DNA of 13,939 nucleotides. Source: a plasmid. The translations under genes and the position numbers were made by a program. Shown in pieces: positions 8,095 to 13,939 of this stretch. The notes under the pieces are model-generated. The model was not told the DNA's origin, searched no databases, and saw nothing but the letters and a program-made list of their open reading frames with translations. The stretch lies in sequence record NZ_CP064762.1; one strand, 5' to 3'. Position 1 is the first letter of the stretch; each line of letters begins with the position of its first letter.

Positions 8095-8211
8095 ATGCAA
8101 CATTTTAGTCATCATTACCAAAGCGATATTTCTCGGCAACAATTCGATTTGATCCGCCAGGATCTGGAAGCTTCAAGGTCCCCAATTCCCCCCTCACTCA
8201 AAAAGGAGTGA
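8095..8211 (+). pseudogene. N-terminal fragment of a DDE transposase (DUF4096-like motif, MQHFSHHYQSDISRQQFDLIRQDLE...), truncated
   Basis: The 38-codon ORF begins with a sequence resembling the 'LTDEQWELIEPLL' N-termini of IS5/IS1182-type transposases. There is no downstream continuation. Confidence 0.3.
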
Positions 8212-8306
8212 GCGAAGCCCACGCTCACATTTAACTGCGCCTCCCGTTGGTCGTTGCTAAAATCAAGCCCATGGTTAGGAAACTTCGGTCACACCCTCAG
8301 GCAGAA

Positions 8307-8528
8307 TTAAATAGCGTTAATAGCTGATCTGGCCCTTTGAAGTTGTTTGAATTCTTTGGACGTTACTTCAGTACCGTCTTCTAGCTCAACTGATTTAGCG
8401 CCTTTAACCCAATTCCGAATTGAATCGGCTGAAGGACCGTATTCCTTGGATAATTCATCGGATCGTCGTCCCGCTTTAACCATCTCCACAATGGACTTTT
8501 TTAAGTCCTCTTCATAACGTGTAACCAT
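8307..8528 (-). pseudogene. IS3-family transposase OrfA (HTH, PF01527-like), 3'-truncated
   Basis: MVTRYEEDLKKSIVEMVKAGRRSDELSKEYGPSADSIRNWVKG...SKEFKQLQ fits the IS3/IS911 OrfA HTH plus the start of a leucine zipper. It is truncated after ~70 aa and has no orfB. An AGGAGCA RBS lies within the adjacent 62-bp IS-end element. Confidence 0.7.
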
Positions 8529-12717: not shown

Positions 12718-12750
12718 CCTTGACAAGTGTCAAGGGTGTAAGTGCGCATT
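12718..12750 (+). other. Orphan oriT-like site of the RSF1010/MOBQ type: 8-bp inverted repeat (ccttgaca-agt-gtcaagg) followed by a TAAGTGCGC nick-core
   Basis: RSF1010/R1162 oriT has an inverted repeat followed by GGTAAGTGCG|CCCT. Here the sequence ccttgacaagtgtcaagg gtg TAAGTGCGC att gives a 9/9 core match at the same distance from the inverted repeat. No relaxase gene is present in the window. Confidence 0.45.
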
Positions 12751-13024
12751 GACCTCGTTTCACTCGGTCTGCTGATAACCATAAAATCAATTTTTGCCGT
12801 TGTTGAATTGACTGTATTTTTAATTCAATTTATGCTTACACTTAACTGAGTTTGTTATGCTTTAAATGCTAAAAATTGTTGCATATCCCGCTGCTTTCAA
12901 CCAAATTTTTTTAATTGCTTTATGCAGAGAATCTTCATAAACCTGGCAACAAAATTTGAATAACTAACTGTAAGAACTGCGTATCTAAACTGAAATCATT
13001 ATTTTAATGTTAGGAGTAATTAAG

Positions 13025-13219
13025 ATGGACGAAAAGAAAGTATTAAAACCCATTGATGAAATGCTTGCTGATCCTTGGCAAGTTGATATTCAAGAATTGT
13101 TTGAAGCTTCTGTCAATGAACCTGACGAGATCAAAAAGAATTTGTATGATTCCTTATATACTTATATTTTGCAAAAAAGACAAGAAGATATTATTAATCG
13201 TCCTGGCTTCGTTATTTAG
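13025..13219 (+). CDS. Small acidic hypothetical protein (64 aa)
   Basis: AGGAG at 13012-13016 precedes ATG 13025. The ORF-track start at 13007 contains that RBS. A hairpin terminator follows directly. Confidence 0.45.
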   Translation: MDEKKVLKPIDEMLADPWQVDIQELFEASVNEPDEIKKNLYDSLYTYILQKRQEDIINRPGFVI

Positions 13220-13250
13220 CCCTCTAAGAGCCTGCTGAGGGCTTTTTATT
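13218..13250 (+). terminator. Rho-independent terminator (agccctc-N12-gagggct + TTTTTATTTT)
   Basis: agccctctaagagcctgctgagggctttttatttt overlaps the stop codon of the small ORF. Confidence 0.6.
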
Positions 13251-13369
13251 TTGGCTTTGGTATAAATATATATAAATAGTCTCAAAATCGCTGAGAACAA
13301 AAAATAAGGCCCTTAAAAAGGGACATAGCAGTTAAATCTTTATCAAGTTTTAGAAAATCTAACTATTTG

Positions 13370-13665
13370 CTGTCAATGGTAGCGGACGAGCGTAGCGTGG
13401 GAGCATAAGGAATTGACAGCTCTAAACCAGTCTTAACACTGAAATGGCGAAAGCCAAAGTTTCTATAAAACTTTGCTTTCCTGCCTAACGGCGAGTGAAA
13501 AAGCGGTCAAGCTGGTTCAGCTTGGACGGGGTACGGGGCGTCAGCGCCCGAATTAATGTGGCTTGCCACACCTTTTAGGCAACGAACAGAGTGAGGCGCA
13601 AGGAGCATAGCGACTGGAGTTTAATGTGAGCCGGTTTTTGGCTCACTCCTTTGTATTTTTTGTTT
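13370..13665. other. GC-rich multi-hairpin element: ssoA-like single-strand origin remnant or structured ncRNA
   Basis: Local GC is well above the plasmid background.
- A long hairpin gctgtcaat...attgacagc (13370-13420) carries cgTAGCGTgggagc in its loop, resembling the CS-6 TAGCGT/A loop of ssoA elements.
- A GNRA-looped stem tggcGAAAgcca lies at ~13446-13457.
- Further stems include caaagtt...aactttg, caagctg-gtt-cagcttg and gggcg-tcag-cgccc.
- A terminal stem gagcc-ggttttt-ggctc is followed by a T-rich tail (13628-13660). Confidence 0.35.
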
Positions 13666-13690
13666 TAGATTTTAATCTCGTACAGTGGTG

Positions 13691-13734
13691 CCTCTTTTAT
13701 ACCTCTTTTATAAACCTCTTTTAAACCTCTTTTA
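13691..13734 (+). repeat. Four ~11-bp direct repeats (cctctttta) of the origin region
   Basis: cctctttta occurs at 13691, 13702, 13715 and 13726. This is typical of the DnaA/AT-rich side of Rep_3 iteron origins. Confidence 0.7.
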
Positions 13735-13772
13735 GACCCCTATTGAGGCTTACTCTCCCAAGGCTTATAGAA

Positions 13773-13873
13773 GTTTATCAACGAGGTTTTGTCTGTTTAT
13801 CAACGAGGTTTTGTCTGTTTATCAAGTAGGTTTTGTCTGTTTATCAAGTAGGTTTTGTCTGTTTATCAAGTAG
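13773..13873 (+). repeat. Origin iterons: 4.5 contiguous 22-bp direct repeats (gtttatcaaSKAGGttttgtct)
   Basis: The repeats lie at 13773-13794, 13795-13816, 13817-13838 and 13839-13860, with a half-repeat at 13861-13873. Copies 1-2 read ...caacgagg... and copies 3-4 read ...caagtagg.... Confidence 0.9.
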
Positions 13874-13883
13874 AAATATAAAG

Positions 13884-13939
13884 TTGACTACTTGATAAAC
13901 ATAACCTAAAATTAATTTGTAATCATTAGGAGGTACAGC
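13884..13939 (+). promoter_or_regulatory. repA promoter (TTGACT-17-TAAAAT), an operator formed by the last half-iteron and its inverted copy ctacttgataaac overlapping the -35, and the AGGAGG RBS
   Basis: The -35 is at 13884-13889 and the -10 at 13907-13912. The RBS at 13928-13933 sits 6 nt before the ATG at position 1 if the molecule is circular. The inverted repeat is gtttatcaagtag (13861-13873) / ctacttgataaac (13888-13900). Confidence 0.7.

Follow-up and report, generated by a model that had tools for sequence, protein, structure and literature searches.

The window analysed here is a whole circular plasmid of 13,939 bases (NZ_CP064762.1), and the question it raises is what a GC-rich element of about 300 nucleotides (nt) does directly upstream of its theta origin. 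The element occupies position 13369 to ~13665 on the + strand, between a small conserved open reading frame (ORF, 13007-13219) and the 11-bp repeats of the origin. The original prediction, whose limits of 13370-13665 agree with those found, regarded it as a relic of an ssoA-like single-strand origin (sso) or as an unannotated structured RNA. Homology, structure, strand and position point to another type of origin. We consider it probable that the element is a well-conserved ssoT-type sso, located on the strand that this theta plasmid of a lactobacillus would transfer, and that it would prime synthesis of the complementary strand after mobilisation.

The stretch stands out as the original prediction had described it: no other 300-nt segment of the window reaches the GC content of 0.49 found at 13351-13650, and the backbone is at ~0.30-0.40. 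No ORF of at least 50 amino acids (aa) lies over the element and only chance frames of 23-33 aa overlap 13360-13670, which agrees with its description as free of ORFs. Six local hairpins (I-VI) were located programmatically, so that the impression of densely packed stems was justified. Folded as single-stranded DNA (ssDNA), the + strand reaches -50.4 kcal/mol, compared to -40 ± 4 kcal/mol after dinucleotide shuffling (z = -2.56); an equally good fold was reached by 2 of 100 shuffled sequences.

A covariance-model search of both strands of 13200-13939 against Rfam, proposed as a check in the original prediction, returned the family RF01691 ('Bacillus-plasmid RNA'; Weinberg et al. 2010) on the + strand at 13369-13429, where hairpin I and its 3' tail are located. 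The match scores 74.1 bits (gathering threshold 31, E = 1e-15) and covers model positions 1-61 of 61; apart from RF01691, no family came near threshold in this region, and in the window it is the sole family above threshold. The outcome that had been named as speaking against an sso, a lack of Rfam or sso hits, thus did not occur. As for the alternative of an unannotated structured RNA, the structure stands, but the first hairpin is already catalogued, as the RF01691 seed contains near-identical sequences from the family plasmids pSMB74 and pRC18. RF01691 models only this hairpin and labels it a small RNA (sRNA), whereas here it would be part of an ssDNA origin of ~200-300 nt.

What RF01691 represents is indicated by its occurrence elsewhere. 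Matches of 61-62 bits stand at the very start of the sso of pTA1060 and pTA1040, two Bacillus plasmids with rolling-circle replication (RCR) whose sso coordinates were given by Wright, Johnson & Grossman 2015 (PMC4595007); in pTA1060 (our locus L001) the match lies at 455-510, inside the defined sso at 450-650. The discoverers of RF01691 listed one instance upstream of ydcS in B. subtilis (Weinberg et al. 2010). Upstream of ydcS is also the place of sso1 of the integrative and conjugative element (ICE) ICEBs1, a functional and orientation-specific sso according to four assays (PMC4595007). A chromosomal Bacillus locus comprises an FtsK-like coupling protein, a Rep_trans (NicK-type) relaxase, hairpin I 52 nt downstream of the relaxase on the same strand, and a small ORF. 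The matches in the defined sso's of pTA1060 and pTA1040, the place of sso1 and this ICE layout suggest that RF01691 is stem-loop I of the pBAA1/pTA1060-type origin (ssoT). In pTA1060, a match to 'skipping-rope RNA' (RF02924, 50 bits) was found at 292-361 on the - strand, ~95 nt from the sso and on the opposite strand to it; it is a candidate structured element in its own right.

The window has the GTCAAYGGTA ... TAAGGARTTGAC pattern of ssoT stem-loop I, including the conserved loop ends, at 13369-13429; a 9-bp stem (GCTGTCAAT/ATTGACAGC, 13369-77 / 13412-20) encloses a 34-nt loop. When one genome per species was scanned with a degenerate pattern for hairpin I, at least 120 loci were found in Bacillaceae, Lactobacillaceae, Staphylococcus, Enterococcus, Listeria and others. 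In most of the listed Bacillus and Lactobacillaceae loci, the sequence C(T)GCC..CGGCGAG(T/G)GA follows 55-69 nt after hairpin I. Its counterpart in the window is the predicted single-stranded motif CTGCCTAACGGCGAGTGA (13481-13498; Bacillus version CTGCCTACCGGCGAGGGA), which is invariant in an alignment of 38 species-level relatives. The stem-loop that ssoT origins have directly 5' of CTGCCTA(A/C)CGGCGAG(T/G)GA is present as hairpin II (13449-62 / 13468-80, GAAAGC-c-AAAGTTT / ctata / AAACTTT-GCTTTC), which ends at 13480 and abuts the motif. MAFFT lost its register at hairpin II across lineages, and the hairpins were therefore counted in anchorage to the motif. In 50 of the 54 non-redundant ssoT lineages, a perfectly paired stem (7 bp or longer) stops 2-9 nt 5' of the motif; its arms have 26 distinct sequences, and 83% outperform shuffled controls at p ≤ 0.05.

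The GC-rich 3' part of the core (13507-13549) combines the G-tracts GGGGtacGGGG with hairpin III (13507-14 / 13518-25, TCAAGCTG/CAGCTTGG) and hairpin IV (13536-40 / 13545-49, GGGCG/CGCCC). It aligns with the RCR plasmid pPS1 and resembles the distal GC-rich stem-loops of the Bacillus origins in layout. Compensatory changes in hairpin III were observed in diverged members (CAAGCTG/CAGCTTG, CAAGCGC/GCGCTTG and CAAGCGT/ACGCTTG). BLAST similarity from 13369 to ~13550 was found with the mobV-rep intergenic region of the small RCR plasmids pPS1, pLP-8, pSD11, pLP325, pPC101 and pLp900-6. For the sso of pBAA1, three stem-loops are important for activity (PMC4595007). Judged by homology and layout, the first ~190 nt of the element are a complete ssoT homologue, and the last ~100 nt (hairpin V, linker and hairpin VI) are a part specific to the theta-plasmid family.

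Compared to the ssoT of the Bacillus RCR plasmids pBAA1, pTA1015, pTA1040 and pTA1060, the window shares hairpin I, a second hairpin abutting CTGCC..CGGCGAG.GA and GC-rich hairpins with G-tracts. These parts span ~190 nt, follow one another in an identical order and occupy the functional strand. It differs in the stem sequences of hairpins II-IV, which are unrelated, and in the ~100-nt 3' extension with a terminal hairpin that takes the place of the Bacillus distal hairpins. Its host replicon is of the theta type, whereas the Bacillus hosts replicate by rolling circle. Characteristic of an ssoT is the conversion of ssDNA to double-stranded DNA in vivo, with less accumulated ssDNA, more stable RCR vectors and rifampicin-sensitive priming; for the element in the window, such activity is predicted.

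The RF01691 match and the homology to defined origins support the prediction of an sso, but not its assignment to ssoA. This assignment had been derived from TAGCGT in the loop of hairpin I, which recalls CS-6. The hexamer is present at 13393-98 but is found in only 11 of the 38 relatives; the others have AAGCGT or CAGCGT, and the Rfam consensus at this site is gaAGgGaG. Since TAGCGT is not conserved, its likeness to CS-6 appears to be due to chance, and the element's homology is instead to the pBAA1/pTA1060 type. Membership of ssoA was rejected on the CS-6 hexamer, without direct comparison to pMV158 ssoA/ssoU. A 14-nt probe from GGCATAGCGTGAGC, likewise quoted in the original prediction, gave no BLAST match and was too short for BLAST. 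The proposed GNRA tetraloop stem tggcGAAAgcca exists as a sequence, but its GAAAGC is the 5' arm of the larger and better-supported hairpin II. In pPS1, hairpin II is kept, and an inserted T destroys the tggcGAAAgcca tetraloop.

The 3' extension (13557-13625) comprises the weak hairpin V (13557-62 / 13565-70, TGTGGC/GCCACA) and a conserved linker, and occurs only in the theta-plasmid family and, at 76%, in Staphylococcus haemolyticus plasmid pY80. It is followed by hairpin VI (13626-32 / 13640-46, region 13626-13668), which features the stem GTGAGCC/GGCTCAC, an invariant CTCACTCC and a T-rich tail, and corresponds to the terminal hairpin with a U-rich tail noted earlier. A terminator scan scored it as terminator-like on the + strand. 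The direct repeat GGAGCATA is located both in the loop of hairpin I (13400-07) and in the 3' linker (13601-08). One relative (L099, 3119-3446) has a 27-nt tandem duplication in the linker, in which GCAACGAACGGAGTGAGGCGCAAAGAGCGTAGCGAATGGAGT is partly repeated; the linker thus tolerates a change in length, unlike the core.

The original prediction had further considered the element a relic, which is contradicted by its conservation. Its length is between 299 and 302 nt in 37 of 39 loci, and the 38 relatives share 90-96% identity with the window over it. Comparison of per-position identities between the window and the loci of 17 other species resulted in 93-97% for the element, 92-97% for the small ORF upstream of it and 74-83% for the intergenic DNA on either side, as well as 72-78% for the iterons and 63-94% for repA. 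Based on these alignments, no other non-coding part of the replicon module is as well conserved as the element, and its identity values, which lie above those of the flanking DNA, indicate that it is not decaying.

Its structure is conserved as well. In the 38 relatives, 99.3% of the stem cells pair, compared to 33-48% when the partners are slid; hairpin V contributes the most broken cells (96.9% paired). Changes on one side of a stem lead nearly always to a G-T wobble. Variable columns of the element are rarer in stems (18 of 96) than outside them (80 of 204; Fisher p = 4e-4). Covariation within the close family is scarce, with a single pair showing double changes. Two long-range pairings proposed by RNAalifold (62-69/254-260 and 123-131/194-202) were rejected, as they never vary and were not seen in diverged members.

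An sso acts on one strand only, and the strand occupied by the element was examined across hosts. Of 33 diverged ssoT lineages, 27 have an Rfam-sense strand that folds better, as ssDNA, than the complement (Wilcoxon p = 7e-6); across these lineages, the sense strand contains 71 G-T pairs, compared to 10 in the complement. In all seven annotated RCR plasmids examined, as well as in a Listeria contig that encodes an RCR-type Rep, the element is on the rep-coding strand; the usual order in the RCR plasmids is mobV-sso-rep. The rep-coding strand of RCR plasmids is the strand displaced during replication. An ssoT-like element is thus found on the rep strand of RCR plasmids, on the NicK strand of the Bacillus ICE and, in the window, on the strand of the predicted origin of transfer (oriT).

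This predicted oriT is of the MOBQ/RSF1010 type and lies on the + strand at 12719-12760 (noted also to 12776). It consists of the inverted repeat CTTGACAagTGTCAAG (12719-12735) followed by GGTGTAAGTGCG/CATTG and may also be described as RSF1010/pIP501-like, with an inverted repeat and GTGTAAGTGCGCATTG. The inverted repeat stands 5' of the nick core TAAGTGCG/C on the strand to be nicked (12719-12752). In the cleaved RSF1010 substrate ...GAGAAACCGGTAAGTGCG/CCCTCCC, the hairpin is likewise 5' of nic, and the DNA 3' of the nick stays relaxase-bound (PMC4814116). Based on this matching geometry we infer a nick on the + strand between 12746 and 12747, by analogy with RSF1010. The element lies 622-918 nt 3' of the predicted nick on the same strand. 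For 29 family loci, the sequence extends 700 nt or more upstream; in 26 of them the oriT core was found on the same strand 350-700 nt upstream, and in none was it found on the opposite strand only.

The ~41-nt oriT core (~12736-12776) also recurs alone, at 92-100% identity, in many of 929 matching plasmid records from Lactobacillaceae and related bacteria, of which 136 are typed as conjugative. Most relatives of the window are typed as non-mobilizable by MOB-suite. A further oriT-like core, located on the opposite strand ~90 nt from the same-strand core and ~550 nt before hairpin I, was seen in five family loci (L014, L032, L044, L070 and L099, including Tetragenococcus halophilus); L014 and L070 have a second same-strand core, too. 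In ~100 plasmids (e.g. L006, CP096868.1, 1443-1503), the homology to the window, comprising oriT, ORF and hairpin I, ends just after hairpin I (~13439), and unrelated sequence lacking the CGGCGAG motif follows the breakpoint. Either hairpin I is useful by itself, or truncated copies arise because the sso is a hotspot of recombination.

Synthesis of the complementary strand after entry through oriT, which the original prediction had put forward, is the best-supported function for an element that stands on the predicted nicked strand, 622 nt 3' of the nick. The element would work only when the + strand is single-stranded, and since the plasmid replicates by the theta mode, the occasion for this would be conjugative mobilisation. 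A MOBQ relaxase supplied in trans would nick oriT at 12746/12747, and the + strand would enter the recipient with its 5' end first. The sso would follow 622-918 nt behind the nick and turn the incoming strand into a duplex. On the single-stranded + strand, hairpins I-IV would fold around the unpaired CTGCCTAACGGCGAGTGA, and the folded DNA would be recognised by the host priming machinery, most likely RNA polymerase. Reports by Seery and Devine from 1993 and by Meijer from 1995 are said to describe priming by RNA polymerase for ssoT. It is the usual priming route for the sso's of Gram-positive bacteria (PMC4595007). A short RNA primer on the + strand would then be extended leftwards by DNA polymerase, toward the 5' end of the + strand. 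Only after duplex formation could repA be transcribed and the theta origin be used, because the template of repA is the missing strand. A terminator-like hairpin in the would-be primer RNA (13524-13508) was considered, but its A-run is not conserved outside the family.

There is precedent for such a role, as sso1 improves the stable acquisition of mini-ICEBs1 and ssoU raises the transfer of pMV158 to E. faecalis 300-1000 fold (PMC4595007). ICEBs1 sso1 is a close parallel: an ssoT-type sso on a conjugative element, just downstream of relaxase and oriT and on the transferred strand, which helps stable establishment in transconjugants (PMC4595007). It differs in that ICEBs1 replicates by rolling circle after excision, so that sso1 serves both processes, whereas in the window only transfer would expose the strand; furthermore, its relaxase NicK belongs to Rep_trans, compared to the MOBQ type predicted here. 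In the pMV158 cassette (MobM, oriT, ssoA and ssoU), sso's are likewise part of the mob module and are needed for efficient transfer into some hosts, and its order mob-sso-rep is shared by small Lactobacillaceae RCR plasmids. It is of the MOBV type, in contrast to the MOBQ-like oriT of the window, and no link to ssoA was found, judged by the non-conservation of TAGCGT. The Frpo/ssi of F, an example from Gram-negative conjugative plasmids, and the ssiA of pAMbeta1 are also folded ssDNA near oriT or ori and recruit RNA polymerase or a primosome, by which the complementary strand is started (PMC4595007), yet they have no sequence relationship to the element. Moreover, Frpo drives mRNA synthesis of leading genes from the incoming strand, and the ORF next to the element in the window is in the wrong sense for that.

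Neither this kind of element nor the use of an sso in conjugation is new, as both are known from pMV158 and ICEBs1, and no new principle is involved. What is new is that the 300-nt unit is recognised in its entirety, in ~300 theta plasmids that have no annotation for it, and that RF01691 is connected with sso's. In ~300 sequenced Lactobacillaceae plasmids the 300-nt element has nothing annotated under it, and assignment to ssoT would explain the most conserved non-coding stretch of these replicons. With an oriT in cis and a relaxase in trans, plasmids typed as 'non-mobilizable', such as the window plasmid and its relatives, may gain a transfer route, which bears on the spread of traits among food and gut lactobacilli. 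In vector design, adding or removing the element should alter establishment after transfer. For the curation of Rfam, RF01691, which is filed as an sRNA of unknown role, would become stem-loop I of an ssDNA origin.

Several points weigh against an sso serving transfer. Its activity, the nick site and mobilisation are all deduced by comparison. The complement of the element in the window folds with the same z of -2.56, so that folding energy in this window alone does not tell the strands apart, and the G-T asymmetry across lineages could stem in part from the G-richness of the sense strand. The window encodes no relaxase, which makes transfer dependent on a helper plasmid. Three family loci lack the oriT core upstream, and pPS1, an RCR plasmid, has an oriT-like core on the strand opposite its sso. 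The constant spacing of oriT and sso is largely due to a single conserved module that recombination has spread, so that the 26 loci are not independent. Finally, in S. haemolyticus pY80, E. faecium p1525-c and a Vagococcus plasmid, the last 45-130 nt of the element occur without hairpin I beside Rep_3 origins whose iterons differ, and the stem of hairpin VI covaries among these copies. The 3' end may thus have a secondary role linked to replication or termination. In both pY80 (L007, 3800-4131) and p1525-c (L008, 2789-2812), a mobC-relaxase module precedes the copy and a Rep_3 gene with different iterons follows it; the element is truncated at its 5' end in pY80, which keeps the 3' arm of hairpin I (AGTTGAC), and is reduced to a minimum in p1525-c.

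One explanation for these copies is that the 3' end alone (13626-13668) acts as an intrinsic terminator, independently of any sso, and keeps transcription that arrives from the upstream genes away from the iterons and the repA promoter. The terminator-like call on the + strand agrees with this, as does the occurrence, directly upstream of Rep_3 origins in four genera, of the invariant CTCACTCC, a T-run and a stem that covaries, being GTGAGAG/CTCTCAC in Staphylococcus and Vagococcus and GTGAGCG/CGCTCAC in Enterococcus and in a relic copy in the window (8208-8231). Nevertheless, the ORF upstream already has a terminator of its own at 13226-13246 on the + strand (terminator scan), the T-run is interrupted (TCCTTTGTATTTTTT), and the hairpin has decayed in L. 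curvatus pL1407-2, although ORF and origin are present there. In pPS1, a plasmid without a theta origin, the sso likewise ends in a hairpin of this kind, its loop being T-rich. A separate terminator therefore seems an unlikely account even of the 3' end.

The element could alternatively be an auxiliary part of the theta origin. In this case, RepA would melt the 11-bp repeats, and the exposed + strand would prime the leftward leading strand or load a primosome, similar to ssiA of pAMbeta1. The origin, at 13691-13873 on the + strand, is of the pUCL287 type, a family described in PMC5702455 and PMC7117683, and consists of four 11-bp repeats (~13691-13736) and 4.5 iterons of 22 bp (~13775-13873). 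It is followed by a predicted repA promoter (13884-13912, +), with a ribosome-binding site also present, and by repA itself (1-936, +, across the record start), which encodes a Rep_3 initiator with Rep_3 domains; a DUF536 (repB-like) gene comes next. In ~260 plasmids, the element adjoins this origin and always points the same way relative to ori and repA; 25 nt separate its end from the 11-bp repeats. Over the queried 401-nt region, a 13.8-kb plasmid of Companilactobacillus futsaii shows 99.8% identity. Leftward extension of a primer would suit the leftward fork of a replicon that is reported to be bidirectional (PMC5702455). The terminal 45-130 nt kept beside Rep_3 origins with different iterons in three other genera, and the relic at 8202-8262, also agree with a tie to replication.

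On the other hand, the element is not present in all replicons of the pUCL287 type. A query composed of element, origin and 5' repA matched 518 Enterococcus records, and the examples listed align only from the 11-bp repeats (query 323) or within repA (query 572), never in the element. A complete plasmid of 3.2 kb, pJS33, possesses the homologous repeats but nothing of the element. In L. curvatus pL1407-2 (L135, CP016220.1), the sso core was lost by a clean deletion between the two GGAGCATA copies, exactly as expected from recombination between them; its terminal hairpin is decayed, whereas the repeats, the iterons and repA were left intact. These replicons, which lack the element or its core, indicate that it is not needed for theta replication and is probably not an essential part of the theta origin. 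Published descriptions of the family (pRC12/pRC18 and pMN1) define the origin by the repeats and repA/repB only and mention neither sso nor oriT. Conversely, hairpin I travels with the oriT module to plasmids without an adjoining pUCL287 origin (L006 and ~100 others), and in RCR plasmids and ICEBs1 the element has no theta origin beside it. An auxiliary role at the theta origin is accordingly quite improbable.

A transcribed structured RNA, either cis-antisense or a small regulatory RNA controlling copy number, would fit the filing of RF01691 in Rfam as 'Gene; sRNA' and the proposal by Weinberg et al. of a cis-antisense copy-number RNA, made for a motif situated 200-300 nt upstream of repA or mob genes. 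The + strand of the element also ends in a terminator-like hairpin with a T-rich tail, and a possible extended -10 (TGGTATAAA, ~13257-13266) was read by eye upstream, which the promoter scan did not flag. No sigma-70-like promoter was predicted upstream on the + strand, however, and the element is on the repA strand, so that its transcript would be sense to repA and end before the origin. Experiments have defined the Bacillus homologues as ssDNA origins, which act in one orientation only (PMC4595007). The element of RCR plasmids is always on the displaced strand, which is required of an sso but not of an RNA gene, and some relatives of the replicon lack it entirely. Based on these findings, we hold an RNA gene to be very unlikely. 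A promoter built from TTGACA in the 3' arm of hairpin I (13413-18) and a downstream -10, on single-stranded template, was also considered, but there is no duplex -10.

Least probable is that a rolling-circle ancestor or a cointegrate left the element behind in an inactive form, as a passenger of the mob-rep junction: the oriT/mob-sso-rep order copies that of small RCR plasmids, mosaic breakpoints lie inside the element (~13439 after hairpin I, ~13505 in pY80) and truncated and decayed copies exist, but the constant length, the protected stems with their G-T wobbles and an identity of 93-97% that exceeds that of repA and lies well above that of the flanking intergenic DNA speak against it, and the terminal hairpin of pL1407-2, decayed where the core was deleted, has the look of lost constraint that the intact copies do not have.

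The ORF between oriT and the putative ssoT-type sso (13007-13219, +) is part of the predicted leading region. It encodes an acidic helical protein of 70 aa (64 aa if started at M7), is as conserved as the sso (92-97% nt identity across 17 species-level loci) and is always located between oriT and sso. Its 548 homologous clusters are all annotated as hypothetical, and no match was found in Pfam, NCBIfam or PHROG. The AlphaFold2 model (pLDDT 82) consists of three helices and yielded no fold match at E ≤ 0.001. The gene is a candidate leading-region or establishment gene. A more far-reaching and doubtful idea is that the block of oriT, acidic ORF and sso forms a Gram-positive 'establishment cassette' for theta plasmids, in which the 100-nt 3' extension and the terminal hairpin may contribute a second function, tying the sso to Rep_3 origins in several genera. 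As the sso is just 3' of the ORF, leftward priming would make the 70-aa gene and its promoter the first duplex in the recipient. If true, an establishment or anti-defence protein could be expressed very early, before the rest of the plasmid is copied.

The relic mentioned above is a degenerate second copy of the last 60 nt of the element, located on the - strand at 8202-8262 (TTTTAGCAACGA...GAGGCGCA...AATGTGAGCGTGGGCTTCGCTCACTCCTTT; 80-82% identity in two blocks by local BLAST). It lies beside a truncated HTH_Tnp_1 transposase ORF (8307-8528), in the second most GC-rich patch, and looks like the scar of a fusion with another replicon mediated by an insertion sequence. The cargo of the plasmid (1842-6997, 7276-7846 and 10961-11604) includes a fused restriction-modification protein of 1481 aa with T5orf172, ResIII and Eco57I domains, an N6-methylase-like ORF downstream of its gene, two toxin-antitoxin pairs of the YafQ family and an FtsX/ABC transporter pair.

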